From a virus (Duplodnaviria; Heunggongvirae; Uroviricota; Caudoviricetes), in IMG/VR virus record IMGVR_UViG_3300033068_001655: a stretch of DNA of 64,000 nt; one strand, written 5' to 3'. The position numbers were made by a program, and so were the translations under genes. Below, one piece after another: positions 1,114 through 64,000 of this stretch. Under the pieces are notes generated by a model. That model had not been told where the DNA came from. It did no database searches and saw nothing but the letters and a program-made list of their open reading frames with translations. How positions within the stretch are numbered: the stretch's first letter is position 1; each line of letters opens with the position of its first letter.

Positions 1114-1181
1114 TATTTCGATTATTTTATTTATATATTAAATAAACTAATCGAACTTTTCCAAATATGGATTTTTTATAG

Positions 1182-1269: not shown

Positions 1270-1275
1270 ATATTG

Positions 1276-2756: not shown

Positions 2757-2830
2757 ATTTGCTTGGTTTTTATTACTCGACAAAAGTAATAATAAGTTAT
2801 GAGTTATACAAATAAAATTTGATTTTTTTG

Positions 2831-2963: not shown

Positions 2964-2969
2964 CATTTG

Positions 2970-3044
2970 TGGAGACTCCAGTTATCGAAGCTGGGTCGCA
3001 AGGGCCCTTCCGCCCTCCGCTCTACCATTCTGAGCTAAATCTCC
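2970..3044 (-). tRNA. tRNA-like gene with non-canonical anticodon loop (6-nt ggaagg loop, or 8-nt if the closing pair is open)
   Basis: Acceptor ggagatt/agtctcc and D arm gctc agaatggta gagc are canonical, with a T arm. The anticodon region agggc ggaagg gccct lacks U33. Possible pseudogene. Confidence 0.45.
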
Positions 3045-3049
3045 ATTTG

Positions 3050-3122
3050 TGGAGCCGACGGGTTACGATCCCGTTCCTCTGGATTTTCAGTCCAGCGCAA
3101 TGACCACATCTGCCACAGCTCC
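3050..3122 (-). tRNA. tRNA-Phe (anticodon GAA)
   Basis: Acceptor ggagctg/cggctcc, anticodon arm ctgga/ctgaaaa/tccag, T arm acggg..cccgt. Confidence 0.8.
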
Positions 3123-3129
3123 AATTTTG

Positions 3130-3202
3130 GGTGTAAGACGGGACTCGAACCCGCAATACCTTGGTTCACAACCAAGTGCTTTGACCATTAAGCTACCTAC
3201 AC
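3130..3202 (-). tRNA. tRNA-His (anticodon GUG), no encoded G-1
   Basis: Acceptor gtgtagg/cttacac, discriminator C, anticodon arm cttgg/ttgtgaa/ccaag, T arm gcggg ttcgagt cccgt. Confidence 0.75.
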
Positions 3203-3204
3203 AG

Positions 3205-3279
3205 TGACCCCGGTGGGGCTCGAACCCACGACCCCCTGATTAAAAGTCAGGTGCTCTAAACCAACTGAGCTACGAAGTC
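3205..3279 (-). tRNA. tRNA-Lys (anticodon UUU)
   Basis: Acceptor gacttcg/cggggtc, D arm gctc agttggttta gagc, anticodon arm cctga/cttttaa/tcagg, T arm gtggg ttcgagc cccac. Confidence 0.85.
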
Positions 3280-3288
3280 AAATTTTTG

Positions 3289-3361
3289 TTCTCCCGGTAG
3301 GGCTCGAACCTACGATCCATGCATTAAGAGTGCGTTGCTTTACCAACTCAGCTACAAGAGA
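3289..3361 (-). tRNA. tRNA-Lys (anticodon CUU), one C·A mismatch in the anticodon stem
   Basis: Acceptor tctcttg/cgggaga, anticodon arm acgca/ctcttaa/tgcat, T arm gtagg ttcgagc cctac. Confidence 0.6.
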
Positions 3362-3370
3362 ATTTTCTTG

Positions 3371-3456
3371 TTCCCCCTACAGGACTCGAACCTGTGACCC
3401 ATCGTTTAAAAGACGATTGCTCTAAGCTTAACGCAAACCAACTGAGCTAAGAGGGA
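3371..3456 (-). tRNA. tRNA-Lys (UUU)-like with ~11-nt insertion in the D-loop
   Basis: Acceptor tccctct/aggggga; anticodon arm atcgt/cttttaa/acgat and T arm acagg ttcgagt cctgt are perfect. The D region gctc agttggtt-tgcgttaagct-ta gagc is ~11 nt too long (86 nt total). Confidence 0.55.
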
Positions 3457-3464
3457 ATATATTG

Positions 3465-3535
3465 CACGCCCAAAAGGATTCGAACCTTTATCAACGGTTT
3501 TGGAGACCGTCATGCTACCGTTGCACCATAGGCGT
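3465..3535 (-). tRNA. tRNA-Trp (anticodon CCA)
   Basis: Acceptor acgccta/tgggcgt, anticodon arm acggt/ctccaaa/accgt, T arm aaagg ttcgaat ccttt. Confidence 0.85.
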
Positions 3536-3541
3536 ATGTTG

Positions 3542-3613
3542 TGCGGACTATCGGAATCGAACCGATCTCTTAGGTGCTTCAAACCTACGCTAAACCGTCT
3601 CAGCTAAATCCGC
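3542..3613 (-). tRNA. tRNA-Phe-like (anticodon GAA; loop ttgaagc)
   Basis: Acceptor gcggatt/agtccgc, anticodon arm taggt/ttgaagc/accta, T arm atcgg ttcgatt ccgat. Confidence 0.6.
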
Positions 3614-3624
3614 ATTATATTTTG

Positions 3625-3697
3625 TGGACCCTCAGGGAATCGAGCCCTGTCCTTTGGATTTTCAGTCCAACGTACGCACCAGCTATACGAAAGGTCC
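3625..3697 (-). tRNA. tRNA-Phe (anticodon GAA), paralog of the 3050-3122 gene
   Basis: Acceptor ggacctt/agggtcc, anticodon arm ttgga/ctgaaaa/tccaa, T arm caggg ctcgatt ccctg. Confidence 0.75.
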
Positions 3698-3777
3698 ATT
3701 ATTATTTTGGGTGCCCCTTATCTAGTATTTCTACCACAGGTAATCTTATCATATTCGGATTAAACCGAACCCCCTTG

Positions 3778-3850
3778 GGTGAAAGACGGGGATCGAACCC
3801 GCGACATCCAGAACCACAATCTAGCGCTCTACCACTGAGCTACAATCACC
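3778..3850 (-). tRNA. tRNA-His (anticodon GUG) with genomically encoded G-1 opposite C73; two U·U mismatches in the acceptor stem
   Basis: g-gtgattg-ta-gctc agtggta gagc, anticodon arm ctaga/ttgtggt/tctgg, T arm gcggg ttcgatc cccgt, acceptor 3' ctttcac + C. Confidence 0.65.
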
Positions 3851-3859
3851 ATATATTCG

Positions 3860-3932
3860 CACAAGCCAAGGGAGTCGAACCCTTTCCATCCGAGGTTTTG
3901 GAGACCTGGTGCATACCATTATGCTGACCTGT
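3860..3932 (-). tRNA. Degenerate tRNA-Trp-like (anticodon CCA) gene
   Basis: Acceptor acaggtc/ggcttgt and T arm aaggg ttcgact ccctt are sound, with anticodon loop ctccaaa. However position 8 is A, the D-loop is 4 nt, there is a C·C mismatch in the anticodon stem and the variable loop is 7 nt. Likely pseudogene. Confidence 0.4.
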
Positions 3933-3941
3933 ATTTTTTTG

Positions 3942-4014
3942 TTCCCCCGATGGGCCTCGAACCCACTACTCCTTGGTTAAAAGCCAAGTGCCCGTCCACA
4001 TGAGCTTCGAAGGA
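3942..4014 (-). tRNA. tRNA-Lys (anticodon UUU), third copy
   Basis: Acceptor tccttcg/cggggga, anticodon arm cttgg/cttttaa/ccaag, T arm gtggg ttcgagg cccat. Position 8 is A. Confidence 0.65.
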
Positions 4015-7660: not shown

Positions 7661-9256
7661 ATGAAATACTTAAAATTATTTGAAGGCTTTGAATCTAATA
7701 GGATTAGTGCCATACTATCATTCTTAAATAAAAAACTAAATAAAACTAATGCTGATAGATTCTTAGGGGATCTAATTAGATTGGCAAAGAAATATGATTT
7801 TCCATTAAGTACGTTAACTGATAACGAAATACAATACCTATCTGTAAATAAAGCTTTAGAAATCAAGGAAGAAGCTATGAATCCTAGTGGTATTTATGCC
7901 ATCAAGTATTGGTTTTCATTAGAAAAAGGTTATTTATGTCAAACTGGGGTTGGTAATCAAGAAATGAATTTTGGTAACTATGAACAGTTTATGGAAACTG
8001 GTAAATCGGATTTGACTAAAGGGCATTTAGATTATTTGGTAGATACTTATAATTTAAAAGGTTTAATTGTACCTTGTAGTTTTGATACGTTGCAAAGTGG
8101 TGATAAGGTAGTAATGGCTTGTAATGATACCTTTTATGGTAATGCTAATGAATTAGCGTACGGTGTAATATATGTTGATAATAATGACGGTGAATATTAC
8201 TTTTTTAATAATAAATTTGAGGGTACAACACCTGATGATGGATATACAGAACCAGGATATAGATACTCTTGGATTTTAGGATCTCAAGAGTATGAAAGTG
8301 AGGATCACTGTATGATTCATAAAATTATTGAGGATGACAAACCATTAAGATTTAATGGTATTTCTAAGGAAGAAGAGACTTTAAAATCTGTTTGGGATTT
8401 CAATCTACCATTGAAAAATAATCCACCAATTGAATTAGAAACATGGCAAGGTAAATATAATGAAACTTTAAAGCTTGTAAAAGAAGCTAACTTTGCAATT
8501 GTTCTTTATTTAGATTATGTATTGGTTAAAGATATGAGTAAAGAAGAAATTTCTAAAGAAAGAAAGGATAGTAGAAAAGATGCCTTATTCTTAATGAAAA
8601 ATGAAGATATTAAAAAGGCAAATATTAAAAGATACTTAGAAAAACTATTTGATAAACTAGGAATTGAGAAGGATAAACAGGAATTGAAAAATCTTAACAG
8701 TGTAATTAAATCAACTATTCTTGGTGAGTATTTTCTTATTACAAGTTATAATTCTGGCTTCATGGATAGATTGACTAATTTTACAACATCTTTATATAGA
8801 GTTATGTCAAAAAATGATGAGGAATACTACTTCAATGTATTACTTGAAGTTTTTAAAAAAATTAAGAAATATCGTTTAGAAGTATCATCGAAATATATTA
8901 CTAATATTAAATATATTAAATCTTTAAAATCTGATAACAGTGATAAGGCGAATGAGGTACTTAAAATAGTTCTTAGAATAGGTAAAACTATTTCTGATTA
9001 TTTTAGTAATAAGGAGATTACTACAATTGAAGATCTTAAATATACTCAAATGAAATTAAAAATGATTTCTGGGTTATATCAAGATGATATTTTTTATTTG
9101 TCAGGATTTATGTCAAGTTTATTAGATTCAATGGATACTGATACAGTTGAAATAGAAAAAAGTTTAAAAAGAACTTATTCTGATAAAGAATATGGAAAGG
9201 ATATTAAAAAATTAGAAAAGTTAGAAAGAATTATCAATAATGATTATTTAAAATAA
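7661..9256 (+). CDS. Hypothetical 531-aa protein with CTS-like N-terminus (MKYLKLFEGFE)
   Basis: Long ORF. TAATATATAGTT motif 3 nt upstream of the ATG. Confidence 0.5.
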   Translation: MKYLKLFEGFESNRISAILSFLNKKLNKTNADRFLGDLIRLAKKYDFPLSTLTDNEIQYLSVNKALEIKEEAMNPSGIYAIKYWFSLEKGYLCQTGVGNQEMNFGNYEQFMETGKSDLTKGHLDYLVDTYNLKGLIVPCSFDTLQSGDKVVMACNDTFYGNANELAYGVIYVDNNDGEYYFFNNKFEGTTPDDGYTEPGYRYSWILGSQEYESEDHCMIHKIIEDDKPLRFNGISKEEETLKSVWDFNLPLKNNPPIELETWQGKYNETLKLVKEANFAIVLYLDYVLVKDMSKEEISKERKDSRKDALFLMKNEDIKKANIKRYLEKLFDKLGIEKDKQELKNLNSVIKSTILGEYFLITSYNSGFMDRLTNFTTSLYRVMSKNDEEYYFNVLLEVFKKIKKYRLEVSSKYITNIKYIKSLKSDNSDKANEVLKIVLRIGKTISDYFSNKEITTIEDLKYTQMKLKMISGLYQDDIFYLSGFMSSLLDSMDTDTVEIEKSLKRTYSDKEYGKDIKKLEKLERIINNDYLK

Positions 9257-9601: not shown

Positions 9602-10452
9602 ATCATCTTTTTACATTTATATATAAGACTGCTACTAAATCCTTTTTTTAATATATCCTTGATTGAGTAACCATCTTTTAACAAACCTTTTACCAATTCT
9701 TTTTTATCAGATTTTAATAACTTATCTTCTATTCTATCCCACTTTCTAGACATTATTGGTAGATTTAAACGAACACATTGTTCTTTAATATCTTTAAGTA
9801 TATTATACTTTGATATAAAGATAATTGAACAATTTTCATATATTTTTGCATCTTTAGTTTCCTTAGTTAAATGAGTATAGAAATATTCTAATATAGAAGA
9901 CCAAGATTCATGACATTTAATTATCAATCTACCTTTTTTATTAATAGAGCCATCACCGTCAATAAACCCTATTATTAAACTAAATAATTGTTCATCATTT
10001 AACCAATTAGGTAGTATAGGAGGTATTTTAGTTTTATTGGATTTCCAATTAAAATCTCTAGTAATTTTATCTATAGTTATTTTATCAGATAAAACTACAC
10101 TAATTCTACTTTCATTTTCATATACTTTTACATGACCCAAATGATCTGTTATTTTTAATATATGTAATCTATCCTTAGTTGATATATTTATTTGTATTCT
10201 TTTATCTTTTGTAATATGTCCATCTGCTAACATAAACCCCAACCAATAACAAGAAATATTATCATATTCTATTAATTTGGAATATTTAAAACTATTATTG
10301 TTTTCATTAAAACTTCTTTTTATTTTAAAAAAATGTGCTTTCTTTTGTATATAGTTCCAAGATAATCCTAAATCAGTAATAATAGTTTCTTTACTTGAAG
10401 ATGGATAATTTTCTTTTAAATAGTTCTCTAACTTTGTTTTAGTGTGTCTCAT
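9598..10452 (-). CDS. LAGLIDADG homing endonuclease (double-motif, free-standing)
   Basis: YWLGFMLADGHI and LIIGFIDGDGSI motifs. TAATATATAGT motif ~20 nt upstream of the ATG. Confidence 0.8.
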   Translation of the reverse strand: MRHTKTKLENYLKENYPSSSKETIITDLGLSWNYIQKKAHFFKIKRSFNENNNSFKYSKLIEYDNISCYWLGFMLADGHITKDKRIQINISTKDRLHILKITDHLGHVKVYENESRISVVLSDKITIDKITRDFNWKSNKTKIPPILPNWLNDEQLFSLIIGFIDGDGSINKKGRLIIKCHESWSSILEYFYTHLTKETKDAKIYENCSIIFISKYNILKDIKEQCVRLNLPIMSRKWDRIEDKLLKSDKKELVKGLLKDGYSIKDILKKGFSSSLIYKCKKMI

Positions 10453-26548: not shown

Positions 26549-27637
26549 ATGACAAACGAAATTTTAAACCCAGAATTAGGAAACCCAGATTTCGAGCTTT
26601 TATTCGAGGAAAAAAGCTATAGAAAGGGTAAAAATATGAGTGATAAAGATCTTGATGCTCTTTATAGCTCTATTAAATTAGAAGTGCCACAAGTAGGTAA
26701 TGTGGTTAGATCTAAATACCAAGGTATTATGGCAAATCAGTTTGTATTTAGCGTTGACGGATTCAAAGATGATGTTAGAGTTGAAGACAAACCAGGTGAA
26801 GCTAAATACCTTAAAAATTGCAACACTGGAGATGAGGTTGATGTTTTAATTACCGAGATAAATCACGGTCAATATTTCATCAAAGGAAGTATAGCTTCTT
26901 TATATGAGTCAAGAGCTCACGAAAACCTTAAATCTCTAGAGGAAGGAGAATCAGTAACTGCCTACGTTAGAGCACTTAACCCAGCTGGTTATGATGTTGA
27001 GATTACAAATGGAGGAGTAACTCTTCCAGGATTTATGCCAAATACCTTAGCAGGTATCAACAAACTTTACGACCCAACTTCAATTGTTGGAGATACGTTC
27101 CAAGTTATGATTGAGTCTTTCTCAGAACATGAAGGAACTTATATCGTAAGTCGTAGAAAATACTTACAAACTTTAATTCCAGAAGAAATTAGTAATCTTG
27201 AGTTTAATGTGTTGTATAGTGGTAGAGTAACTGGAACAACACCATTTGGTATCTTTGTCGAGTTCAACGAGTGTTTAACTGGTATGATTCACAAAGCAAA
27301 TGTGACTGAAGAGTGGCAAAACAGAATCTCCGAAATTAAACCAGGACAAGAGATTGAGTTCTTTATTAAAGAAATCATTAAGGAGAAAATTATCCTTACT
27401 CAAGTTCTGAGAGAAACACTTTGGGACACCATCAAAAACGGTCAATTGATCGATGGTAAAGTAAAAGATGTTAAGCAATTTGGAGCTTTAGTTATCTTAG
27501 ATGATGAAACAGTTGGATTAGTCCACACATCAGAAATGGAGAAACTTGGTAGAAAGCTTACATCTGGACAGGACATCAAAGTAAAAGTTTTATCAGTTGA
27601 TAGACAAAGTCGTAAAATTTTTCTTACAATTGGATAA
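26549..27637 (+). CDS. Multi-S1-domain RNA-binding protein (ribosomal protein S1-like)
   Basis: Three S1 repeats recognised, including C-terminal GKVKDVKQFGALVILDDETVGLVHTSEM...GQDIKVKVLSVDRQSRKIFLT. Confidence 0.7.
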   Translation: MTNEILNPELGNPDFELLFEEKSYRKGKNMSDKDLDALYSSIKLEVPQVGNVVRSKYQGIMANQFVFSVDGFKDDVRVEDKPGEAKYLKNCNTGDEVDVLITEINHGQYFIKGSIASLYESRAHENLKSLEEGESVTAYVRALNPAGYDVEITNGGVTLPGFMPNTLAGINKLYDPTSIVGDTFQVMIESFSEHEGTYIVSRRKYLQTLIPEEISNLEFNVLYSGRVTGTTPFGIFVEFNECLTGMIHKANVTEEWQNRISEIKPGQEIEFFIKEIIKEKIILTQVLRETLWDTIKNGQLIDGKVKDVKQFGALVILDDETVGLVHTSEMEKLGRKLTSGQDIKVKVLSVDRQSRKIFLTIG

Positions 27638-29035: not shown

Positions 29036-30226
29036 TTACCAATCATTATCTTGATCATCATCCCATTCTTCATCACCATCATCTTGTGACCATATAATTC
29101 TTTGTGAACCTGGGAAAGGTTTATTACTAATCTGACCAGTTTCTGGGTTCCAGTTATTCATATTATCTACTGATGGATATTGATCAAATGTACCAGGATT
29201 TATATGTGTAGTAAATGTTTGTCCATAACTCATTTGTATATATCCTTTTGAATTACCATATTCAATAAATACATTTCTATCAGAATCTTTACTTGTATAG
29301 ATGGTGTCCATTAGTTGTCTTCCATCATCTAATGTCCAAAGAAGAGCTCTACCAATTATTTTATCATCATAATTTTCAGATCTTAACATCAATAATTTTA
29401 CAGTTTGTGGATTATCAATATAAATTTGTAACCATCTAAGATTACCAACTGCTTGACAAGAACCACCTAAAGTTCCTTGATGTGGAAATTCATAGTTTCT
29501 TCTGTTATACCAGAATCCTAAGTCGTCACCTTCAACGATCTCAAATCTTGAGAACACATCATTCATAATTGCTAAAACTGCTCTAAATTCGTTTACAAAC
29601 GTTTCTATCTTAGCATCTGTAACTGGATAGTTATAAGCTTGTAATAAAACTCTAACTGCTCTACCTGTTCTTACTTCTTGACGACTTCTAGTGAAGACAA
29701 CTTTTTGTTTATCTTCTACAATAGGTCTTAGTTTTTCAATGTTATATACACCTTCACCAGTTGGAAACTTAACATAACACCAAGTTTTACCAGTTTTCTC
29801 AGATGTTACTCTACTAATAACTTCTCCAGCATCATTATTATTTGGATGGAAAACTTCTTCTGTTGTAGGTGTAAATCCTAATCTTGCAAAAATAGCACCG
29901 TTAGTTCTAAGGTTATTAGTAAGCCAACCACCTCTACGACCAACATATTTAACAAATTCTCTAGTATCACCAAGTATTTCTTGTGCAACTCTATCTGGAG
30001 TGAAAGTCAAGATATTATCATTGTCAATTTTTACATCAAAAAAGTTAGAAACAACTTCTAAATCCTTATTTTCAATCTCTAATAATTTCTGAGCAATTTC
30101 GTTGTCAGGTAATTTACTAAGTGCTCTTTTAAACTTAGCAGAATAAACTACATTAGATTCTAATAAAAGTTGTTCTAATATAAGTTTTTCTACAATAAAT
30201 TCTTCATACTTGTTTAAGCTTCTCAT
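29036..30226 (-). CDS. Hypothetical 396-aa protein, paralog of the tRNA-island gene 1566-2756; CTS-like N-terminus
   Basis: Shared conserved block with 1566-2756. N-terminal MRSLNKYEEFIVEKLILE. Confidence 0.55.
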   Translation of the reverse strand: MRSLNKYEEFIVEKLILEQLLLESNVVYSAKFKRALSKLPDNEIAQKLLEIENKDLEVVSNFFDVKIDNDNILTFTPDRVAQEILGDTREFVKYVGRRGGWLTNNLRTNGAIFARLGFTPTTEEVFHPNNNDAGEVISRVTSEKTGKTWCYVKFPTGEGVYNIEKLRPIVEDKQKVVFTRSRQEVRTGRAVRVLLQAYNYPVTDAKIETFVNEFRAVLAIMNDVFSRFEIVEGDDLGFWYNRRNYEFPHQGTLGGSCQAVGNLRWLQIYIDNPQTVKLLMLRSENYDDKIIGRALLWTLDDGRQLMDTIYTSKDSDRNVFIEYGNSKGYIQMSYGQTFTTHINPGTFDQYPSVDNMNNWNPETGQISNKPFPGSQRIIWSQDDGDEEWDDDQDNDW

Positions 30227-30973
30227 TTAATATGTTAATATTTTTAATACAACATCCTCAACAAATTCTTTCATATCTGCTGGATCAATTGTTGCAACCG
30301 TGTCTTTAGTAGAGTGACAATGAAATAACATTGAATAATCTAAATAAGTTTCATCATCCCACTTAACATTTGTTTTACCTTCTAAAACTGGAGGTAATGG
30401 ATTTATTACTACTGAATCAATTCCATTTCTTCTAAATGTCACTGAGTCGTTAAAAGGTGTTCTAACTATTGGACAATCAAATAATGTCTTTATATGATTT
30501 GTTAAAGGTCCTGGGTAATCACCAATGAAAAAGTGTCTACCACCTTTACCGCTTAATTCTAAATTAAGTACCCATTCTATATCACCAAACTTACCTTCAT
30601 TGATTTGTTCAGATGCTCTATTAGAACCAATTCCACCCACTTCTTCACCATCTAATAAGATTACATTCATCGTTGGTAATAGTTTCTTAATCATTATTGC
30701 ATTGATTACTGATGCACTATTATCATTTGCATTATCTATATTAGGGTTATTTATATCGTGATGTGCAACAACCATTCTATTTGAAGTTCCTTTTAAGATA
30801 ATGTTATATCCGGTTACATCTTTAGTAAAGAATTTATCTAATTCATACTTAATTCCCTCTGATTCTAGTAATTCCATTAAAAATTGAACTCTAGGTGGTG
30901 GAGTTTGTGAATTATTATCATAAATAGTTCCTTCGTTTCTAACTTTACAAAAGTCATATATTTTATTGTACAT
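30227..30973 (-). CDS. Putative M28/M42-family metallopeptidase-like protein
   Basis: VVAHHDI...DNSASV...LDGEEVGGIGS...HCHS matches the spacing of the M28 zinc-ligand signature H-x-D / D / EE / D / H. Confidence 0.45.
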   Translation of the reverse strand: MYNKIYDFCKVRNEGTIYDNNSQTPPPRVQFLMELLESEGIKYELDKFFTKDVTGYNIILKGTSNRMVVAHHDINNPNIDNANDNSASVINAIMIKKLLPTMNVILLDGEEVGGIGSNRASEQINEGKFGDIEWVLNLELSGKGGRHFFIGDYPGPLTNHIKTLFDCPIVRTPFNDSVTFRRNGIDSVVINPLPPVLEGKTNVKWDDETYLDYSMLFHCHSTKDTVATIDPADMKEFVEDVVLKILTY

Positions 30974-31000
30974 AAATGTATATATTAAATTTTTAAAATA

Positions 31001-31038
31001 AAAACACCCCTATTTAAAAATAGGGGTGAATTTTCTAA
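31001..31038 (-). terminator. Rho-independent terminator downstream of the flotillin gene
   Basis: cacccctat/ataggggtg 8-bp stem; the minus strand continues tttttatttt. Confidence 0.6.
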
Positions 31039-31051
31039 TCAAAAGTCTCTA

Positions 31052-32944
31052 TTATTTTTTAGAGTCTTTTTTATCTGTTGTAGTTTCAACTACTGCATCA
31101 GTATCTACTACATTTCCGGTTTTCATACCTTTACCCATCATTTCCATGATTTGCATTCCAAGTAATCCATCTAATGAACCGTTACCTTGTCCACTACCAT
31201 TGATTAGTAAATCTGGCATAATTTTCACTTTACCTTTACCAATCTCTTCTGTTACTTTGAATGTCGTAAAGTTGTCTTTACCCATTGCATCAACAGCCAA
31301 TCTATACGCTTCTGCAGTTGATTTACCCACTGATAAGATTGCATTCGCTTCTGCTTCACCAATAACGGTTTTTCTTGTAGCTTCTGCTTTAGCATTCAAT
31401 GTTGTAGCTTCTGCGTTAGCTTCTGCTGCAATTTTTACTGAACGAGCTTTACCAGTTGCGTCTTTAACCGCGGAGTCAGCTAATCTTTCAGAGATTTGAA
31501 CACCTTGGTCAGCTTTTACTAACTCACCTTGCATATCAGCAATAGCAGTTTCTTTTTCAAGAGTTTGACGTTGTACTTGAGCTTTTTTCTGAGTCTCAAA
31601 TGTTACTTGTTGCTCTTCTGCAATTTTACGGTCAGTTAATGTTTTCATCAATGACTCTGGTGGAGTAATATCTCCGATAAGTGTATCTACAGCGTGTACG
31701 TTATATTCGTCCAATACTTTAGAGATCTCTTTCTTAGCAGCATCTTGTCTTGATTGACGAGTAGATAAGAACGCGATAACGTCTGAATCTTGAGCAGAGT
31801 TACGGAAGTAGTTACCAATTGTTGGTTCTAATACTTGAGATACAAGTGCTTGTGTAGAACCGAAACGAGCAATTACTTTAGGTGCTTCATTCATTGGAAT
31901 GTGGATAATCTGTGATACATCCAAATTGAATGGGAAACCGTCTTTAGAACGTACTGTAATTGTACTTAAACCTTTATCTAAGTTGTGAGACTCTGTACGA
32001 GCATTTGCCCAGTTAAGTACAAGATTTGTTGTAGGTACAATCTCAATCTTAGTTGTATAAGGGTTGATTGCATATTTACCTGGACCCTTAGGTTCAGCCC
32101 AAACACCTTTTTGTCCTTTAGATACTAAGTTACCGTGTTTAAACCCAGCACCAGTTACGTCAACTCCTTCTTCACCAACATATGAAATAACAACACCACA
32201 ATTACCAATTGGAATATTAGTCATTTGTACTTCTTCAACTTGAACAGCCCAAGGGTTTAAGTTGTAAGAACCTGCTTGAATAACTTGACCTTGTAATCCA
32301 CGATTACCACCTGCTGCTAAGAAAGCATCAAAATCTTGGAAGTTATTGTGTCCTTCAACAGATTCTCCTGCAATTTGACCTGAACTAAGTGGTTCACCAT
32401 CTAATGTAGTAACAATACCCACCATATTTTCTTGAACGCTAACTTGTTTAACTGCAGATACTTCAAATAAGAATGTATTGATTTTATAGCTACCGTTAGT
32501 AATATAAGCGGCTTGACGACCTTTTTGACCACCATTTTGAAGGAAAGCTGTAGCATCTTGATAATTATCACATTCAACTTTACGTCCTAAGATACGTCCT
32601 GTTGGTGGAACTTTACCATCTTTAGAAGAAATTAAACCAATGTGTCCCTCAGGAATAACTATAAATCCTTGCATATCAACTGAATACTGCCATGGCCACA
32701 TAAACCAATGTAAACCAGTTTCTAACATTTTTGCTTGTAAACCTGCTTCACCATTTACTGCGATGATTCTATCACCACTTAATTGTTTGTTCTCACCAAA
32801 AAGAACGAATTTTTTCGTTACTAAACCAATCTTGTTCTCAGGAACAATAACTAGTCCAAAAAATACACGAAAAATGAACTTGTACATAAGAATACATACT
32901 AGTCCGAGAATTGCTGGCCAATAGGCCAAAATCTGTGTTACCAT
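31052..32944 (-). CDS. SPFH/band-7 (flotillin-like) membrane protein, 630 aa
   Basis: N-terminal TM helices, an SPFH core, and a long Ala/Glu/Gln-rich flotillin-type coiled coil (AEEQQVTFETQKKAQVQRQTLEKE...AEANAEATTLNAKAEATRK). GC ~40% against a ~27% background. Confidence 0.8.
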   Translation of the reverse strand: MVTQILAYWPAILGLVCILMYKFIFRVFFGLVIVPENKIGLVTKKFVLFGENKQLSGDRIIAVNGEAGLQAKMLETGLHWFMWPWQYSVDMQGFIVIPEGHIGLISSKDGKVPPTGRILGRKVECDNYQDATAFLQNGGQKGRQAAYITNGSYKINTFLFEVSAVKQVSVQENMVGIVTTLDGEPLSSGQIAGESVEGHNNFQDFDAFLAAGGNRGLQGQVIQAGSYNLNPWAVQVEEVQMTNIPIGNCGVVISYVGEEGVDVTGAGFKHGNLVSKGQKGVWAEPKGPGKYAINPYTTKIEIVPTTNLVLNWANARTESHNLDKGLSTITVRSKDGFPFNLDVSQIIHIPMNEAPKVIARFGSTQALVSQVLEPTIGNYFRNSAQDSDVIAFLSTRQSRQDAAKKEISKVLDEYNVHAVDTLIGDITPPESLMKTLTDRKIAEEQQVTFETQKKAQVQRQTLEKETAIADMQGELVKADQGVQISERLADSAVKDATGKARSVKIAAEANAEATTLNAKAEATRKTVIGEAEANAILSVGKSTAEAYRLAVDAMGKDNFTTFKVTEEIGKGKVKIMPDLLINGSGQGNGSLDGLLGMQIMEMMGKGMKTGNVVDTDAVVETTTDKKDSKK

Positions 32945-32984
32945 AATTTAATTGTTTTAATTGTTTTAGTTCTATTTTTAATTT

Positions 32985-33713
32985 TTAATTTGTTTCGATT
33001 AAATCTAAAATATCTTTTAGAGGCATTTCTAATAGGTCTTTATAATCATCAACCTTTACTTCTGTTTTTTTAGACACTTGTTGAATACCCCAATCAAGTA
33101 TTTTTAATCCATGTCTATTAGGATCTAAAATCGATTTTGAAATGATCTTTAACAATTCTAAGTTTTTGTTTTTAACTAAATCAATTTTTCTTGTATCATT
33201 AGTAGTAATCAAACCCGTTGCTTCATCAAAAAGTAACTGACTTAATGCAAGTTCTCTAGACTCTGCGGTTGTTAGTTTTCTAAAAGTCCAACCATTAAAC
33301 TTTAGTTTTCTTTTAACTCCTTGAAAATTAATGAAGTATTCTACATAAGGTGGTAACGCAATACCGTTTCTAGTTGTTCTAGGTGTTTCCTTACGAATAA
33401 TATTCTCAACACGATACATACCATCTTTAACTAAACACTTGTATCTATCTTGTGTACATACAATTATATCACCATTTGATACATCCTCACCTTTTAGTAA
33501 TTCAAATCTTTGGTAGAAATTTTGTGGTAATGGAATGTCAATCTCTGGAAGAGGTTTGCCATACATTGTAGTAAAATTCTTTACAGTGTATCTTCCGAAA
33601 TCTTTTAATTGTACTGACTTCCAATTTTGTGTAGTAGAGTTCCATAAAGCAACAACTTCATATGAATGTCCTTTTACTAACTTTGTAGTACCTTTTTTAC
33701 ATATTACATTCAT
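32985..33713 (-). CDS. Hypothetical protein
   Basis: 242-aa ORF. Confidence 0.4.
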   Translation of the reverse strand: MNVICKKGTTKLVKGHSYEVVALWNSTTQNWKSVQLKDFGRYTVKNFTTMYGKPLPEIDIPLPQNFYQRFELLKGEDVSNGDIIVCTQDRYKCLVKDGMYRVENIIRKETPRTTRNGIALPPYVEYFINFQGVKRKLKFNGWTFRKLTTAESRELALSQLLFDEATGLITTNDTRKIDLVKNKNLELLKIISKSILDPNRHGLKILDWGIQQVSKKTEVKVDDYKDLLEMPLKDILDLIETN

Positions 33714-33714
33714 A

Positions 33715-34131
33715 TTAGTCTAGTATTGCGTTAGTTGGGTCAGGTAATTTGCCAGAACTATCTCTTTGAGTTATTCTTTTAGCAGATGATGGATTATCAG
33801 CTAGTCCATTTTGCATCCACTCTTTAAAATCTAAATGTTCTAAGTAATCTTGTGCAGTTGGAATAAATCTCATTCCAAAATCTTCTAATATATGTTGTTC
33901 ACATATATCTTTTACAGATACGGTTCTATCAGCAGAGTTTGTGATAGTGTATCCAAATATAGGTATCATCACCTCGTGGATCCAAAATCCATGGTGAGTC
34001 AACGCTCGGTGTCTATTGTCAGACAGGTAAGCTTTAGAACAATCCATCTTCATGTGTATTGCTAGATAATCTTGTGGTTCTCCACCAAATTTACGAGCCG
34101 AAGAAACTGAATGTATGTGTGCGTTTGCCAT
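33715..34131 (-). CDS. Hypothetical His-rich protein with anomalously high GC (~45-48%)
   Basis: 138-aa ORF; compositional outlier. Confidence 0.4.
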   Translation of the reverse strand: MANAHIHSVSSARKFGGEPQDYLAIHMKMDCSKAYLSDNRHRALTHHGFWIHEVMIPIFGYTITNSADRTVSVKDICEQHILEDFGMRFIPTAQDYLEHLDFKEWMQNGLADNPSSAKRITQRDSSGKLPDPTNAILD

Positions 34132-34577
34132 TAATATTTTATTTTATCGATTGTTTCTTGTAATTGTTCTTGTGTTAGTTTATCGAGTACAAATGTAAGC
34201 ATTTCATCTGAATTACCAAAATTTGTTTGAATATGTTGTTTAAGAAAATCTAAATAATCTTGTCTTTCACCAACACCTAACTGTAACATTTTAATTTCTC
34301 TTTGCCATTGAGTCCCACCATTGATTTCAAAATCAGTATCATAATCACCAGAGAATGATAAATTGTATTTCATTTTGTCTTGAAATTCCTTAGTGGACAT
34401 ACCTATAGGTATTTCAAACTCAACTGGTTTATAGGGTCTCTGACAGATTCGATCCGCTATATCTTTAGAGTCTCTTAAACCCAGATCACAGGCTTCTTTT
34501 ATATTTTTAACAAGTTGTAACATATTTTGACAATCATTGTTAAATTTTACTTTTACAATATTTTTCATTATACACAA
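34131..34577 (-). CDS. Hypothetical protein
   Basis: 148-aa ORF. Confidence 0.4.
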   Translation of the reverse strand: MCIMKNIVKVKFNNDCQNMLQLVKNIKEACDLGLRDSKDIADRICQRPYKPVEFEIPIGMSTKEFQDKMKYNLSFSGDYDTDFEINGGTQWQREIKMLQLGVGERQDYLDFLKQHIQTNFGNSDEMLTFVLDKLTQEQLQETIDKIKY

Positions 34578-35218
34578 AGTATTAAACTTTCTTTATATAA
34601 GTATTCATCAATGACTTTTTGATCAATTTGATTTACTTGTTTTAATAAGTTTGGTAGTTTTGCAGGTTGTAAACCAATACTACCTACTACCTCACTACCA
34701 TTATTAAAATTGTTGATAATAAAGTCTGCCATTTCATTTTTCTCTAATGGGTCCATTTCAGTCTTTAATCTATCACGGATATTAAGTAATCCCTCATTTG
34801 TCATATAACGAGCTCTTTTTAATCTGTCTCCTTCTGGGGCAAATACACTAATAGTCATATCAACTTTTTTATCCCACTCTCTTTCAAATAAAATAGAAGA
34901 ATGAAAGATAGTATAGATTGCACCTTTTCTTTCCATTCTATCATTAAATTTTGCAAATGCATTGAAAAGGTCGTCTTGTACGATGTCAAGAATTTTATCA
35001 AATGCAGATTTCTTCAATCTACGGAAATCTAATTGATGATTGATAAAGATGTCAGAACCTAACTCTCTACGCACTTCACCTAATAATTCGTGATTGTGAT
35101 TTAAAATAAACTTTAAAATAAGATCTGCTTCAAAAACAGGAATACCTATTCTTTTGAATACTTGAATTGTAGTGTCTTTTCCTGAGTATCTGCTACCTGA
35201 TAATCCTAATGTAATCAT
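34568..35218 (-). CDS. Dephospho-CoA kinase-like P-loop kinase
   Basis: ITLGLSGSRYSGKDT...GIPVFEADLI parallels CoaE (IGLTGGIGSGKST...G.PVIDADxIA). Confidence 0.5.
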   Translation of the reverse strand: MITLGLSGSRYSGKDTTIQVFKRIGIPVFEADLILKFILNHNHELLGEVRRELGSDIFINHQLDFRRLKKSAFDKILDIVQDDLFNAFAKFNDRMERKGAIYTIFHSSILFEREWDKKVDMTISVFAPEGDRLKRARYMTNEGLLNIRDRLKTEMDPLEKNEMADFIINNFNNGSEVVGSIGLQPAKLPNLLKQVNQIDQKVIDEYLYKESLILCV

Positions 35219-35322
35219 ATATCGTTTTTATATTTTGAAATACAAATGTACGACATTATTTGATAAAAACAAAACTAAACTAATAAATTTTTATTGATAT
35301 AAATAACTAAAACAATTAAGAT

Positions 35323-36432
35323 ATGATAATAAATTTAAAAAGTCAAACAGACCTTTCGGGGTTTTATGTAGTTTATGAAGGTTCAACAAACTTAGAAAAA
35401 CCAGGATGGTATGGAATATCACACTTAATGGAACATCTTGTTTGTAAATCATTTGATCACTTACAAGAAGATTTTGATAGAGATGGTATTGATTGGAATG
35501 CTTATACTTCTTCTAATGAAATCGTATTCTATTTAACTGGATTGGATGAAAAAGTAAACAAATATAAGAATCAATTTGTAGAATTACTAACTTCTTTTAA
35601 TGTAACTAAAGAAGAATTTGAAAATGAAAGAAAAATTGTTCTTGAAGAGTATATGGATTGTTTCAACGATCAGACTCAATCACACATGTTAAACCTTTCA
35701 AGAAAGTTATTCAATGATTATGATCCAATTGGGTTGAAAAAAGATTTAGAGAATTTGAAATTTATGGATTGTCTTAACTTTTTTGAATTACAATATGCTA
35801 AACCAACTAAAATTATCAATGTTTCTAAAAACAAGGATTATAAAAATAAATCAATTGAATTTCAAGAAAGAAAAATTGTAACTAATTTGAGTTTTGGTAA
35901 TCACGATGTTGATTTGGAATTAAATAATGATTTTAAAGATAAAACCTCTATTGTAATTTTATCTCCAGTGATTGAAGAAGATTTTGCTTACGTACACTTT
36001 ATAAATGCAATGTTATCATTAGGTTTAAAATCACCTTTATATCAAGAGATTAGAGAAAAGAAAGGATTAGTTTATTACGTTCATTGTTATCAATCAAGAG
36101 TAAATGATAAAGGATTGAATTCTATTTCGACTTTAACTTCAAATAGAAACTTTAATGAGGTTGTTGACGCTGTTAAAAAAGTGATTACAAACCCAGATAA
36201 GTTTTTAACTAAAGAAAGATTTAACATTGTTAAAGATTACTATGAGGTAAGAAAACAAAAAGACGAAATCAATAGATATGGTGCAGTAAATCAATGGATA
36301 AACCCTGCAGGTTGGTCTGTGTATGACATATTAGAAGAGGTTACTTTGAAAAAGATTAGAGAAGTTTATGATAAGTATTATGACTTTGATAAGTTTTATA
36401 TTTCATCAGACAAGAAAGAATTTAAAAAATAA
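35323..36432 (+). CDS. M16-family (insulinase/pitrilysin-like) zinc peptidase
   Basis: Inverted zinc motif HLMEH near the N-terminus (ISHLMEHLVCKS); 369 aa. Confidence 0.55.
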   Translation: MIINLKSQTDLSGFYVVYEGSTNLEKPGWYGISHLMEHLVCKSFDHLQEDFDRDGIDWNAYTSSNEIVFYLTGLDEKVNKYKNQFVELLTSFNVTKEEFENERKIVLEEYMDCFNDQTQSHMLNLSRKLFNDYDPIGLKKDLENLKFMDCLNFFELQYAKPTKIINVSKNKDYKNKSIEFQERKIVTNLSFGNHDVDLELNNDFKDKTSIVILSPVIEEDFAYVHFINAMLSLGLKSPLYQEIREKKGLVYYVHCYQSRVNDKGLNSISTLTSNRNFNEVVDAVKKVITNPDKFLTKERFNIVKDYYEVRKQKDEINRYGAVNQWINPAGWSVYDILEEVTLKKIREVYDKYYDFDKFYISSDKKEFKK

Positions 36433-36462
36433 ACCCACATTACAAAATTTAATAGATTTTAA

Positions 36463-36493
36463 TAAAAAACCACTCAAATGAGTGGTTTTTTTA
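36463..36493. terminator. Bidirectional rho-independent terminator (accactc aaat gagtggt ttttttt)
   Basis: Between convergent genes; A-run before and T-run after the hairpin. Confidence 0.6.
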
Positions 36494-36494
36494 T

Positions 36495-37052
36495 TTAGTA
36501 GTTTTCTTTTACCCAGTCAACTAATTTTAATAGATTTTCTGTGTTATTTGGATATTTATCCAATAAAGATTCTAGGAATTTTAATCTTCCGTCTTTATAT
36601 AAATCACCATATGCTTTATATTCATTGAAAATTCCATTTTCCCATTCTAATAATTGTTCAAAATCTCTTTCGACAATATTCATATCGTAGTAATTAAAAG
36701 ATTCTGAAAGATTTGTAGTAGCTTGGTGAGTTTTAGTATCTAAAATCATTTTACTAATATCAATCATATCAGGATTATTTTTATCTAGACAACAGCTTTC
36801 AAAAAACTCTGCCGATTTTTCTTCATTATCTTGTTTCATAGGATCATAAACACAATCATGAAATAAAGCAGTAATCAATAACTTTTCATATTCTTTTTGA
36901 GAGTATTTTGATTTACTTTCATTGATTTGCTCGATTAAATCATTTAAGTGATTTAAAGTATGATAAGAACGATGTGATTCATTCCACATTGCTAGTAATG
37001 TATTAACATCACATTTTATATTCCATTTGTTTAATAGTTCTTGTAAGTCCAT
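36495..37052 (-). CDS. HD-domain phosphohydrolase-like protein
   Basis: H...HD motif (YHTLNHLNDL...ALFHDCVYDP). Confidence 0.45.
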   Translation of the reverse strand: MDLQELLNKWNIKCDVNTLLAMWNESHRSYHTLNHLNDLIEQINESKSKYSQKEYEKLLITALFHDCVYDPMKQDNEEKSAEFFESCCLDKNNPDMIDISKMILDTKTHQATTNLSESFNYYDMNIVERDFEQLLEWENGIFNEYKAYGDLYKDGRLKFLESLLDKYPNNTENLLKLVDWVKENY

Positions 37053-55477: not shown

Positions 55478-55810
55478 TTAAAAGTTTGGATTATCTAGGT
55501 AATAAGTATTATGTTCTGTAATGAACTCGAAGTTATCGTGTAAAGTCTTACAATAACCTTTAAAAGCATGTACATCTTCTTCGTTTAGTTTAAACCATTC
55601 ACCTCTTACTTTTTTAGTTTTAAAAATTCGGTGTAAACTACTTTCTATTTTAGTCCCCCATTTTGATTTAAACGAGTCAACTAAGTAAAGGTCCGCGGCA
55701 TTTCCAGTTCTAAATTCTTTCAGCCTTGTTTCAATTTTTCTTTTAGTGAAGCCTATCTTATGTAGTTTTTCACCATCTATATCAGCACAAATTAAGTAAA
55801 TGTTCGTCAT
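55478..55810 (-). CDS. T5orf172-domain (GIY-YIG-like) protein
   Basis: IYLICADIDGEKLHKIGFTKRKIETRLKEF...GEWFKL matches the T5orf172/MUG113 pattern. Confidence 0.5.
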   Translation of the reverse strand: MTNIYLICADIDGEKLHKIGFTKRKIETRLKEFRTGNAADLYLVDSFKSKWGTKIESSLHRIFKTKKVRGEWFKLNEEDVHAFKGYCKTLHDNFEFITEHNTYYLDNPNF

Positions 55811-61843: not shown

Positions 61844-64000
61844 TTATATTAGATAATCATATGGACGTATTAGTGGAAATTCTTCAAATAGACCATACCC
61901 TGATACGGATAAATCTGGAGCTGAAACTGCAGGACCACTAAGCTCAGTAAAAGAACCATCATATGGGTTACCACCACCAACATCATAATTATGTACATTT
62001 CTTGAAACATACCATATTGGTATGCCAGTACTAAGATTCTTTAATGGAGTTCCTTTTCTTATAATAGGATCAGGAGCTACTTCTATTGCCATATTTCCTC
62101 TAAAAATAACACAGTTATCTATCCACATACCTATTGCACCATTATCTATAACTGATAAGTGATAATCACCATCTAAACTATTATTGGTATCCGCATTTAC
62201 AAAACGACTATTTCTAAATCTAAGTTCTGTGGATATTCCATGTCCTTCTCTTTGTGTTGCATATGTATAAGTATGTGTATAGATTGCACCAAGATTATCA
62301 TCATAATTTAGTAATGTAATTTGACTATTATATATTTCTACAATAGCCCCTATACCATCTGCTTCTTTATCTTTTAGAAATCCCATTGCTATATTTGATA
62401 ATATTTCTGGTGGGGCACCCTTATCTACACTAAATTTATCATTTGTCATAAGATTACAATTTCTTAGGGTAAGTCTTGAATAAGAATCCATTAAAAATGA
62501 TGAGTATTGTGTTGTCACAGTGTTAAATGGTGAGTCAAAAATACTAACATTTTCAAAAAGCATCTCTACATTTTGATCAATATAAGCAATATATCCAGAG
62601 ATTGGACTATCATAACCGTTAACATTACCAATATTTTCTATTGAATTTGTACTATCTTCAGATGTTACCGTTACGGTGAACTTTTTGCCACTCTCTATAA
62701 GACTAGCATGTGTTTGAAAAATTGGTGAATCATATAATCCTAAATCATCTTTGTTATATGTGTATAAAATACGTACACCTGGTTTCAAATGTAATTTCCA
62801 ACTTTTCTTTGCGATCAGTGGTGAATTGATAAAATGATCATATGAACTACTTGGAAGTGTATTATAAATACCACCTACTGTTATTGCATTTGTGTTCATA
62901 CTTCCATTTTCACCTGGCCAAACTTCAATAACTCCATTTTCAAATGGACCTGATCCATTACCATCCATGTCAAGACCGTTTACCTCATAGAATGCACCAT
63001 TTATAGTTGCAAATGGTTTATTAAAGTCACCACGCATACCAGTTGAATCATCACCATTAGGATGAACAAAACAAACATTTGTATATGGAAAACTGGAACC
63101 TCCACCACCTGGAATATCTACCGTTACAGCACCAGATCCAGATGCAACAACACCAGCACCGGTAAAGTCAATTGATACAACATTTGTTGTAACTAAACTT
63201 CCTTCATCATATATTGTTATAGGACTACCTGTACCTGAAGTACCAGATGATCCAGAACTTCCAGATGAACCACTTGAACCGGATGAACCAGATGTACCTC
63301 TTGTACCAGAACTTCCGGATGAGCCACTAGAACCAGATGTTCCGCTACTACCAGATGAACCACTTGAACCGGAACTTCCAGATGAACCACTTGAACCAGC
63401 CGTTCCACTACTACCAGACGTTCCACTACTACCAGACGTTCCACTACTACCAGATGAACCACTTGAACCGGATGTACCGGAACTTCCAGATGTACCTCTT
63501 GTACCAGAAGAACCGGATGTACCAGAAGAACCGGATGTACCAGAAGAACCGGATGAACCACTTGAACCGGATGTACCAGATGAACCACTTGAACCGGATG
63601 TACCAGATGAACCACTTGAACCGGATGTACCAGATGAACCGGATGAACCACTTGAACCGGATGTACCAGATGAACCAGAAGAACCACTACTACCGGATGA
63701 TCCACTTGAGCCTGATGAACCACTAGTTCCACTAGAACCTGAGTTTCCACTAATACCAGAAGTACCCGAAGAACCTGAAGTTCCGGTACTTACACTTAAA
63801 TTATATTCTATATCATCAGAATTTATTAAAAATGGATTTGTAATAGATAATACAAAAGTACTATTTATATTAGTTGAACCAGATGTTATGTAAACTAATG
63901 TTCCGTTAATAAAGTCATCTGATGTTGATGCATCTAAAGATCTTACCCAAGTAGATGAACTAACAACATATATCCCATTTTCTGATAATGTTGATTGGTC
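61844..64000 (-). CDS. Collagen-like (Gly-Ser/Thr-Ser)n stalk fused to a C-terminal beta-helix (pectate-lyase-fold, tailspike/depolymerase-like) domain; 5' partial
   Basis: Hand translation shows the frame of the listed 61844-63037 ORF stays open upstream through 64000. Residues encoded by 63230-63790 are ~62 consecutive G-X-Y triplets (GSSGSSGTSG...). The C-terminal 397 aa show beta-solenoid periodicity. Confidence 0.7.
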   Translation of the reverse strand, partial: DQSTLSENGIYVVSSSTWVRSLDASTSDDFINGTLVYITSGSTNINSTFVLSITNPFLINSDDIEYNLSVSTGTSGSSGTSGISGNSGSSGTSGSSGSSGSSGSSGSSGSSGTSGSSGSSGSSGTSGSSGSSGTSGSSGSSGTSGSSGSSGSSGTSGSSGTSGSSGTRGTSGSSGTSGSSGSSGSSGTSGSSGTSGSSGTAGSSGSSGSSGSSGSSGSSGTSGSSGSSGSSGTRGTSGSSGSSGSSGSSGSSGTSGTGSPITIYDEGSLVTTNVVSIDFTGAGVVASGSGAVTVDIPGGGGSSFPYTNVCFVHPNGDDSTGMRGDFNKPFATINGAFYEVNGLDMDGNGSGPFENGVIEVWPGENGSMNTNAITVGGIYNTLPSSSYDHFINSPLIAKKSWKLHLKPGVRILYTYNKDDLGLYDSPIFQTHASLIESGKKFTVTVTSEDSTNSIENIGNVNGYDSPISGYIAYIDQNVEMLFENVSIFDSPFNTVTTQYSSFLMDSYSRLTLRNCNLMTNDKFSVDKGAPPEILSNIAMGFLKDKEADGIGAIVEIYNSQITLLNYDDNLGAIYTHTYTYATQREGHGISTELRFRNSRFVNADTNNSLDGDYHLSVIDNGAIGMWIDNCVIFRGNMAIEVAPDPIIRKGTPLKNLSTGIPIWYVSRNVHNYDVGGGNPYDGSFTELSGPAVSAPDLSVSGYGLFEEFPLIRPYDYLI
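63230..63790. repeat. Coding tandem repeat array (9-bp GXY units; higher-order 27-bp units gaaccacttgaaccggatgtaccagat) inside the collagen-like gene
   Basis: Near-perfect tandem repeats visible directly in the sequence. The track's ORFs 63217-63750(-) and 63337-63726(+) are wrong-frame artefacts of this array. Confidence 0.85.

Follow-up and report, generated by a model that had tools for sequence, protein, structure and literature searches.

Two genes in a 64,000-nucleotide stretch of tailed-phage DNA (IMG/VR virus record IMGVR_UViG_3300033068_001655, Caudoviricetes; hereafter the window, in whose positions all coordinates are given) raise the question of whether a gene that is much richer in guanine and cytosine (GC) than the genome around it must be foreign, and, if it need not be, what it does there. 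The window has a mean GC of 29.0%, whereas the two genes, one for a 630-residue SPFH-domain membrane protein and one for a short histidine-rich protein of the DUF6915 family, both lie near 37%, and an initial annotation made from the sequence had read them as a single island recently acquired from a cellular genome. We favor a different answer, to which we assign a probability of roughly 60%: the SPFH gene encodes a long-resident, Bacteroidota-type membrane scaffold, its GC excess is compositional, and its product would form a cage on the host membrane during infection. The parts of this reading differ in strength, with the identity, history, and composition of the gene together being very likely, and the cage and its role in infection being put forward more tentatively below.

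Compositionally, the elevation of both genes is real, though smaller than the ~40% GC and ~47% GC first given for them. The SPFH gene (31052..32944, minus strand) has 36.9% GC, its richest 200-nt window reaching 41%, and the DUF6915 gene (33715..34131, minus strand, 138 residues) has 36.7%, its richest reaching 40%. They rank second and third among the 48 window open reading frames (ORFs) of at least 100 residues, the first rank being an antisense artifact (a plus-strand ORF over a Ser/Gly-repeat region), and the excess of the SPFH gene amounts to about 7 binomial standard deviations (SD) over 1.9 kb. By codon position (GC1/GC2/GC3), the values are 0.526/0.379/0.203 for the SPFH gene and 0.475/0.381/0.245 for the DUF6915 gene, against window medians of 0.374/0.294/0.173 (GC3 ranks 9 of 48 and 5 of 48, respectively). 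GC1 and GC2 are raised while GC3 stays near the window median, which puts the excess in the first two codon positions and not at silent sites. Each protein was then re-coded with the window's own synonymous codon usage, which gave an expected GC of 35.1% (SPFH) and 34.5% (DUF6915) versus 37.0% observed for both, leaving residuals over the amino-acid expectation of +1.9 points (z of about 1.2) and +2.5 points (z of 1.7). Neither residual falls outside the spread seen among the other 45 genes (SD 1.3 points), two of which have larger ones, and the synonymous codon usage, which the initial annotation had proposed to analyze, is phage-typical. Compared with the other window proteins, the SPFH protein has more Gly, Ala, Val, and Gln and less Asn, Tyr, Lys, and Phe, and the DUF6915 protein is rich in Ala, His, Arg, and Pro and poor in Asn, Lys, and Tyr; its nine histidines (6.5% of residues versus 1.4% in the rest of the window) bear out its description as His-rich.

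The same offset recurs in bacteria. Across the best 80 of more than 530 relatives, found in a scan of one genome per prokaryotic species, the SPFH gene exceeds its flanks in GC in every case (80/80; mean 0.402 versus 0.351), with GC1 (~0.50) and GC2 (0.376, SD 0.005) near-constant and GC3 running from 0.19 to 0.66, tracking each genome. The GC offset is a property of the protein, that is, of its amino-acid composition, and not of its history, and GC content, which had been taken as evidence of transfer, loses that meaning when all 80 orthologs likewise exceed their flanks. Since GC3 is phage-typical and the identical offset is present in 80 of 80 orthologs, recent horizontal acquisition is therefore not supported. 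Nor do the two genes make up one contiguous island: in or beside the flagged interval lie three ORFs and a hairpin with a T-run, all co-directional on the minus strand, and the ORF between the pair (orf242, 32985..33713, 242 residues) has 29.4% GC, while among relatives the two genes vary independently, with one 415-kb contig keeping SPFH without DUF6915. The pair is two unrelated, long-resident phage genes. For genome scanning the case is cautionary, in that a gene 8 GC points richer in a 29% GC phage need not be foreign, and it was GC3 together with the offset in orthologs from 80 other genomes that showed the signal to be dictated by the protein. As a separate observation, the largest GC residuals in the window (+3.9 and +3.4 points) and its least typical codon usage belong to ORFs 26549-27637 (plus strand, an S1-domain protein) and 55478-55810 (minus strand), which by this measure look more "foreign" than either flagged gene.

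Structurally, the 630-residue ORF was confirmed as an SPFH protein by a Pfam Band_7 match (PF01145; residues 275-458, 90.6 bits against a cut-off of 23.6, E 1.6e-25) that is shared by 17 of 17 aligned relatives; it also matches PHROG 200 and has no NCBIfam match. It begins with a predicted transmembrane anchor (32861..32932, minus strand; about residues 5-28), where K22 and R26 come after the hydrophobic stretch ILAYWPAILGLVCILMY. The AlphaFold2 (AF2) model has a helix at residues 2-28, and the hydrophobic anchor is conserved in all aligned family members, so the initial claim of a membrane SPFH protein stands, membrane insertion being a prediction. By the positive-inside rule (K22, R26), the protein would lie with its N-terminus out and its C-terminus in, the bulk being cytoplasmic. 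Between the anchor and the core are four tandem beta modules (32027..32854, minus strand; residues 31-93, 94-167, 168-241, and 242-306), the fourth of which belongs to the SPFH domain itself, as its N-terminal beta part. The modules, of 63-74 residues, are mutually homologous (HHalign probability 90-99.7%, E 1.6e-6 to 2.7e-27), and no Pfam family covers residues 31-274. The SPFH alpha/beta core (31661..32026, minus strand; residues 307-428, with the AF2 core at 308-423) leads into long Ala/Glu-rich helices (31235..31657, minus strand; residues 430-570), a predicted coiled coil of a cage wall or cap that AF2 renders as three helices (430-493, 505-554, and 556-570), its confidence being low for residues 481-522. 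The C-terminal tail (31055..31234, minus strand; residues 571-630) is Gly-rich and hydrophobic, is disordered in the model (predicted local distance difference test, pLDDT, <50), and carries a motif, P577...G583, conserved across the family; its pattern KIMPDLLINGSGQG...LDGLLG appears to resemble the YqiK/flotillin C-terminus, as in E. coli YqiK. Mean pLDDT is 76.6 for the full model and about 90 for the beta modules, which reach 90.2 when the four-module fragment is modeled alone. The protein is a member of the SPFH superfamily with a YqiK/flotillin-like C-terminal half, and is not a flotillin in the strict sense, as it had first been called, nor HflK/C or the major vault protein (MVP); Pfam Flot (PF15975) has no match in it and reaches one of 17 relatives at a non-significant E of 0.47.

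Against the PDB, Foldseek gave the first 12 places for the full model to MVP chains, which align over 629-815 columns (E 2.6e-13 to 3.9e-11), followed by prohibitin, erlin, stomatin, HflK/C, flotillin, and QmcA (E 1e-10 to 1e-5, roughly 260-450 columns). For the four-module fragment, the top 15 matches were all MVP, including the R1-R7 repeat crystal structure 3gf5 (E 2.4e-4 to 1.2e-2; query-based TM-score, TMq, 0.41-0.49 for 13 of the 15, and 0.19 and 0.35 for the others); below MVP, the next match stood at E 0.19, and the similarity of other SPFH proteins extends over about one module. PDB searches by sequence returned nothing for the single SPFH protein and nothing relevant for a module profile, and a family profile found QmcA (E 1.4e-4) and flotillin-2 (E 5e-4, only over the Ala/Glu-rich coiled coil and with high composition bias). 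The architecture extends well beyond phages. A search over 1.84 billion cluster representatives recovered 2567 relatives, 457 of them at E<1e-30, many of the relatives aligning to the query in several stretches, and a hidden Markov model of the module finds 1 to 13 copies per family representative. At the far end stands a cyanobacterial protein of 1802 residues (Symploca sp. SIO2E6 NET58509.1, P0241), with the largest number of aligned stretches (11) and an extreme expansion of the anchor-module-SPFH architecture with at least 13 tandem modules before the SPFH core and coiled coil, which NCBI names "VWA domain-containing protein".

Genomically, the window resembles very large uncultured phages. 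The SPFH protein is 75% identical to the product of a gene of LR756502.1 (642 kb), the neighboring M16 peptidase gene has 76.5% nucleotide identity to LR745206.1 (635 kb), and protein identities of 75-80% with conserved synteny link the window to both. Genomes of at least 634 kb have been placed in the "Mahaphage" clade, for which Bacteroidetes hosts are predicted (Al-Shayeb et al., PMC7162821), and the window would thus belong to a relative of these ~0.6-Mb "Mahaphage"-type phages with predicted Bacteroidota hosts. Its gene content includes 13 tRNAs, a tyrosyl-tRNA synthetase, an S1-domain protein, an NAD-dependent ligase, an SbcC-like ATPase, and glycosyltransferases. The SPFH gene holds a fixed slot in this setting, in the order M16 - CoaE - orf145 - DUF6915 - orf242 - SPFH - M28 ... 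S1, which is kept on contigs L083 (69 kb), L086 (415 kb), L085 (630 kb), and L001 (642 kb), with SPFH at the same slot also in L084, and L086 retains SPFH without CoaE and DUF6915. Window-to-LR756502 identities are 75% for SPFH, 75% for M28, 80% for M16, 42% for CoaE, 44% for orf242, and 27% for orf148; that of SPFH is far above those of CoaE, orf242, and orf148, which therefore indicates strong constraint.

Evolutionarily, the SPFH protein is both phage-typical and of cellular kinship. In a large protein collection, at least 120 protein clusters show 76-90% identity to it, the listed ones nearly all of 620-642 residues and several on contigs of 412-642 kb. An identical copy of the window protein is carried by a JGI contig of 175,757 bp. 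The best 80 bacterial relatives are full-length at 62-68% identity and include complete chromosomes; 79 are labeled Bacteroidota (mostly Flavobacterium, also Chitinophagaceae, Pedobacter, Mucilaginibacter, and Saprospiraceae), and the remaining one (L061) is a metagenome-assembled genome labeled Methylophilus. None of the window's neighboring genes is present at the bacterial ortholog loci, where the neighbors scanned include housekeeping enzymes and restriction-modification genes. A conserved operon partner of the bacterial ortholog was considered and rejected, no neighbor being shared by more than 27 of 65 loci. In neighbor-joining trees with 200 bootstraps, 122 phage-type sequences were monophyletic in 100% of replicates, and phage plus Bacteroidota sequences separated from more distant representatives at 99%; members of the phage clade share 72-100% identity with one another and 63.5-71% with bacterial sequences. 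The phylogeny that the initial annotation had called for thus sets the SPFH gene within a conserved phage clade of fixed synteny, a placement that the annotation itself had named as telling against its reading. Of its claim of recent acquisition from a cellular genome, the cellular kinship is plausible given the Bacteroidota matches, and the recency falls with the phage-typical GC3 and codon usage. These sequence comparisons suggest one old acquisition, probably derived from the host phylum, followed by vertical descent with occasional loss: the gene would have been captured once, long ago, from a host-phylum genome and since recoded to phage codon usage.

The SPFH gene probably ends its own transcription unit, to judge from an intrinsic terminator (30995..31028, minus strand; a 10-bp stem with 5 G-C pairs, a 4-nt loop, and a T-run) composed of CACCCCTATTTTTAAATAGGGGTG plus TTTTTATTTT at 31028->31005 and starting 24 nt past the stop codon. 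A hairpin and T-run stand at the equivalent place in the five related contigs (L083, L084, L001, L085, and L086) with differing stem sequences, in agreement with the strong terminator first noticed here. As for promoters, the Bacteroidota -7 consensus is TAnnTTTG. A scan of the window for the sigma-70 consensus gave 32 sites versus 42.3 in shuffled sequence and was not used, as Bacteroidota promoters differ from that consensus. Just past the SPFH terminator, L001 (~9930-9950), L085 (~8975-8985), and L086 (~8945-8955) carry TTATATTTG, which fits TAnnTTTG and agrees with the predicted host phylum; at this position the window has only a degenerate TACATTTA.

Mechanistically, every SPFH protein solved so far forms, by lateral assembly, a ring or dome around a patch of membrane (PMC13100048; PMC12624060). 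By analogy with HflK/C, QmcA, flotillin, prohibitin, and vault assemblies, we posit that the N-terminal helix of the phage protein inserts in the host cytoplasmic membrane with the bulk of the protein in the cytoplasm, and that lateral oligomerization through the SPFH core and long helices would then cover a patch of the membrane with a closed ring or dome. Stacked between the anchor and the core, the four beta modules would heighten the wall, much as the MVP repeats do for the vault barrel, and so yield a tall, half-vault-like cage, only half a cage being expected because the N-terminus is in the membrane. With its own terminated transcription unit, the gene could give the phage its own supply of a host-type membrane-organizing cage over a long infection, in which the phage protein may take the place of the host protein, to which it is 67% identical, or assemble together with it. 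We regard this mechanism and role as a tentative proposal, with somewhat less than even odds. A bolder version, which we consider possible but doubtful, is that the phage protein and its Bacteroidota orthologs are membrane-anchored "half-vaults", with modules duplicated from the SPFH N-terminal beta part and homologous, beyond mere analogy, to the MVP repeats of eukaryotic vaults, deployed on the host membrane by huge phages. If so, they would stand midway between canonical SPFH membrane domes and the vault, as an intermediate found in prokaryotes and viruses, and evolution could adjust the number of modules, from 1 to at least 13, and with it the height of the cage. Should the cage model be true, it would also show the use of a membrane cage for a phage with a very large genome, and the construction of SPFH cages and vault walls could be studied in a convenient system of bacteria and phages, with Flavobacterium as host.

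Several observations weigh against the reading of a long-resident scaffold that forms a membrane cage. The coiled-coil region and tail have low pLDDT, and ring formation, topology, and expression timing are predictions. The resemblance to MVP is structural only, with moderate TM-scores (0.41-0.49): neither Pfam Vault (PF01505) nor MVP_shoulder (PF11978) was found in 17 family members at E up to 1, and sequence searches of the PDB with the whole-family profile and with the module profile did not retrieve MVP. The Bacteroidota ortholog is itself an uncharacterized protein. In the trees, monophyly of the Bacteroidota sequences has 31% bootstrap support and the placement of the phage clade as sister to the main Bacteroidota group 64%, which leaves host to phage as no more than the probable direction of transfer. 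Lastly, the close relative LR745206 keeps the neighboring genes and lacks both SPFH and DUF6915, with no genome-wide SPFH match at E<1e-5, so the SPFH gene is dispensable for at least one lineage.

Other roles and origins are less probable than this. The one that survives best, although unlikely, is a part in phage-phage conflict or host takeover, through superinfection exclusion or by co-assembling with the host's cage and so poisoning or hijacking it. Membrane-localized proteins of huge phages have been suggested to affect susceptibility to other phages (Al-Shayeb et al., PMC7162821), the 67% identity to the host-phylum ortholog could allow mixed oligomers, and many phages and giant viruses that are unrelated to one another carry SPFH genes. 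However, the protein matches no PADLOC defense model, its 72-100% identity and uniform length across the clade are unlike fast-evolving conflict genes, and no partner effector gene is conserved alongside it. A defense system was likewise rejected for the locus as a whole, the six ORFs between 29036 and 34577 giving no PADLOC match.

A shade less likely is that the protein modulates a membrane protease in the manner of FtsH and HflKC, as the initial annotation had ventured; the neighboring M28 and M16 peptidases would possibly take part. SPFH cages of the HflK/C, prohibitin, and stomatin type regulate proteases, HflK/C is among the structural matches, and the M28 gene lies 79 nt downstream of SPFH and the M16 gene ~2.4 kb upstream. 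This linkage is unspecific, however, as both peptidase genes hold their positions in the SPFH-less LR745206. A terminator separates SPFH from M28, and the bacterial orthologs have no protease neighbor. Nor did the partners that such a system would call for turn up in what was scanned: there is no second SPFH gene in the window or beside the orthologs, and hence no HflK/HflC pair; no NfeD match in the neighboring ORFs of the window, the related phage loci, or the Flavobacterium loci; and no AAA-protease family match in the ORFs scanned (nine in 29036-37052 and ten elsewhere in the window). In sequence, moreover, the protein is nearer the QmcA/flotillin/YqiK type than HflK/C. Protease regulation and superinfection exclusion are thus ranked below the membrane-organizing cage because no protease, NfeD, or effector gene is specifically linked, no defense match was found, and the gene evolves slowly.

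The transfer reading with which we began, that of an island recently moved in from a higher-GC cellular genome, is very improbable. It would account for the two being the highest-GC protein genes of the window, for the cellular identity of the nearest non-phage SPFH relatives, for the absence of both genes at the LR745206 syntenic locus, and for the small positive GC residuals (+1.9 and +2.5 points). Against it stand the phage-typical GC3 and codon usage, the same offset in every one of the 80 bacterial orthologs, and a monophyletic phage clade of kept synteny at 63.5-71% identity to bacterial sequences, which together leave little room for recent transfer; the 29% GC gene between the pair and the presence of SPFH without DUF6915 in L086 also speak against an island, as does the spread of DUF6915 through phages described below. 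A Pfam scan found no integrase or transposase among the neighboring ORFs. Just as improbable is a free, closed vault-like container or a virion or assembly component, which the MVP structural matches and the relatives with up to 13 modules might suggest, since a conserved hydrophobic anchor sits exactly where MVP halves would dimerize, the gene lies among metabolic and housekeeping-type genes and not structural ones, and free-living Bacteroidota carry the ortholog.

The second GC-rich gene has a phage history of its own. The His-rich ORF is a DUF6915 protein (PF21866, E 6e-35; its 119.9 bits exceed the cut-off of 27, and the match takes in profile positions 2-102 of 102) that matches PHROG 8143 (E 1.3e-34) and has 733 homologs in the large protein collection. 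The family occurs in 126 cultured phage genomes, among them Streptomyces, Bacillus, Gordonia, Sinorhizobium, Microbacterium, Synechococcus, and Ralstonia phages, where the annotated features under the matches are always "hypothetical protein"; its proposed import from a cell does not fit a phage-wide family that is not recognizably cellular. Its invariant residues, H7, H26, H41, H46, and H80 plus several Asp/Glu, suggest that it is probably a metal-binding protein, and no solved homolog was found. A functional link to the SPFH protein was rejected: orf242 lies between the two genes, L086 has SPFH without DUF6915, and Streptomyces phage StarPlatinum has both families yet no Band-7 gene within 6 kb of DUF6915. 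StarPlatinum has its DUF6915 gene in a stretch rich in tRNA genes and close to that of a Ro-like RNA-binding protein, and several Joint Genome Institute (JGI) records call DUF6915 homologs "cysteinyl-tRNA synthetase"; an RNA-related role may lie behind this hint, or a mis-annotation.

Elsewhere in the window, orf242 has no Pfam or PHROG match and keeps its synteny in LR756502 and LR745206 at 43-44% identity. ORF 29036-30226 (minus strand), a 396-residue protein with an acidic tail and no Pfam or PHROG match, has no counterpart at the LR756502 and LR745206 syntenic loci and a 394-residue version in the closer relatives L083 and L084. Two further GC peaks stand out. The one at 3-4 kb (48.9%) arises because an array of 13 tRNA genes lies there (1181-4014, minus strand), in which the Phe, His, Lys, and Trp genes are duplicated and one call (2969-3044) has a four-base anticodon, "gaag", that could be a frameshift-suppressor-like tRNA or an ARAGORN artifact. 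The one at 63-64 kb (41%) is due to the Ser/Gly-rich repeat region, with imperfect tandem repeats (ccagatgaaccacttgaaccggat...) at 63200-63790 and a plus-strand ORF (63337-63726) of GC3 = 1.00 that is the antisense of a minus-strand Ser/Gly-rich low-complexity linker.

How, then, does the SPFH protein compare with systems already described? With MVP it shares the order of tandem beta repeats, an SPFH "shoulder", and a long helix, and it differs in having 4 modules against 9 and a transmembrane anchor at the N-terminus, where MVP halves join, so that a membrane-bound half cage is the most to be expected. Bacterial "MVP-like" proteins have been reported from BLAST-detectable homologs (PMC3762200; bioRxiv 10.1101/872010), and two gut-phage MVPs of ~811 residues, BLAST-detectable with human MVP, cluster with phages of Bacillota (bioRxiv 10.1101/2023.11.10.566534); unlike these published phage MVPs, the phage SPFH family is membrane-anchored and invisible to the Vault models. 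The Bacteroidota orthologs (for example Flavobacterium psychrophilum AIN73943.1, 636 residues) are 64-68% identical to it from end to end and have the same layout, length, and GC1/GC2 signature, but are chromosomal genes among housekeeping genes, with a GC3 that follows the host genome, whereas the phage copies form their own clade.

Flotillins and YqiK (COG2268; JGI labels the phage SPFH homologs "YqiK") share the N-terminal membrane attachment, the SPFH domain, the Ala/Glu-rich coiled coil, and a Gly-rich C-terminal region, whereas the phage protein has ~210 extra residues, that is, three added beta modules before the SPFH domain, which YqiK and flotillins are not known to have. The HflK/HflC-FtsH and QmcA-YbbJ complexes have in common with it the SPFH fold and a predicted inner-membrane ring or dome; they lack the extra beta modules, while the phage locus has no paralog pair, NfeD partner, or linked AAA protease, and the phage protein is probably oriented toward the cytoplasm.

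Virus-encoded SPFH proteins are not rare, and the statement that such a gene is unusual for a phage was too strong, given the PHROG 200 match and at least 25 viral SPFH-fold proteins in BFVD, many from phages and several from giant viruses. Those of Vibrio phage Kuja, Rhizobium phage Pasto, Streptomyces phage StarPlatinum, and giant viruses are likewise SPFH membrane proteins, but most viral examples are single-domain and of 260-430 residues, and identity to the phage protein is 22-27% for Vibrio phage proteins and 8-16% in structural alignments to viral SPFH proteins. The best structural match among viruses, Harvfovirus sp. A0A3G5A4K1 (802 residues, "prohibitin domain-containing protein"), is the only one whose alignment is of comparable length (765 columns), which suggests another repeat-bearing, vault-like SPFH protein, from a eukaryotic virus. 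Literature searches not aimed specifically at the anchor-module-SPFH-coiled-coil architecture returned no description of it, and the family, which is conserved in Bacteroidota and their huge phages, has been annotated only as "SPFH domain-containing/YqiK". It points to an unrecognized SPFH architecture, widespread in Bacteroidota and expanded to at least 13 modules in Symploca. On phage-type contigs as long as 642 kb, the scaffold is strongly conserved and is related to those in the phylum of the predicted hosts. The interest of the locus lies in this vault-like architecture and its tight conservation in the largest known phages, and not in the GC signal that first drew attention to it.

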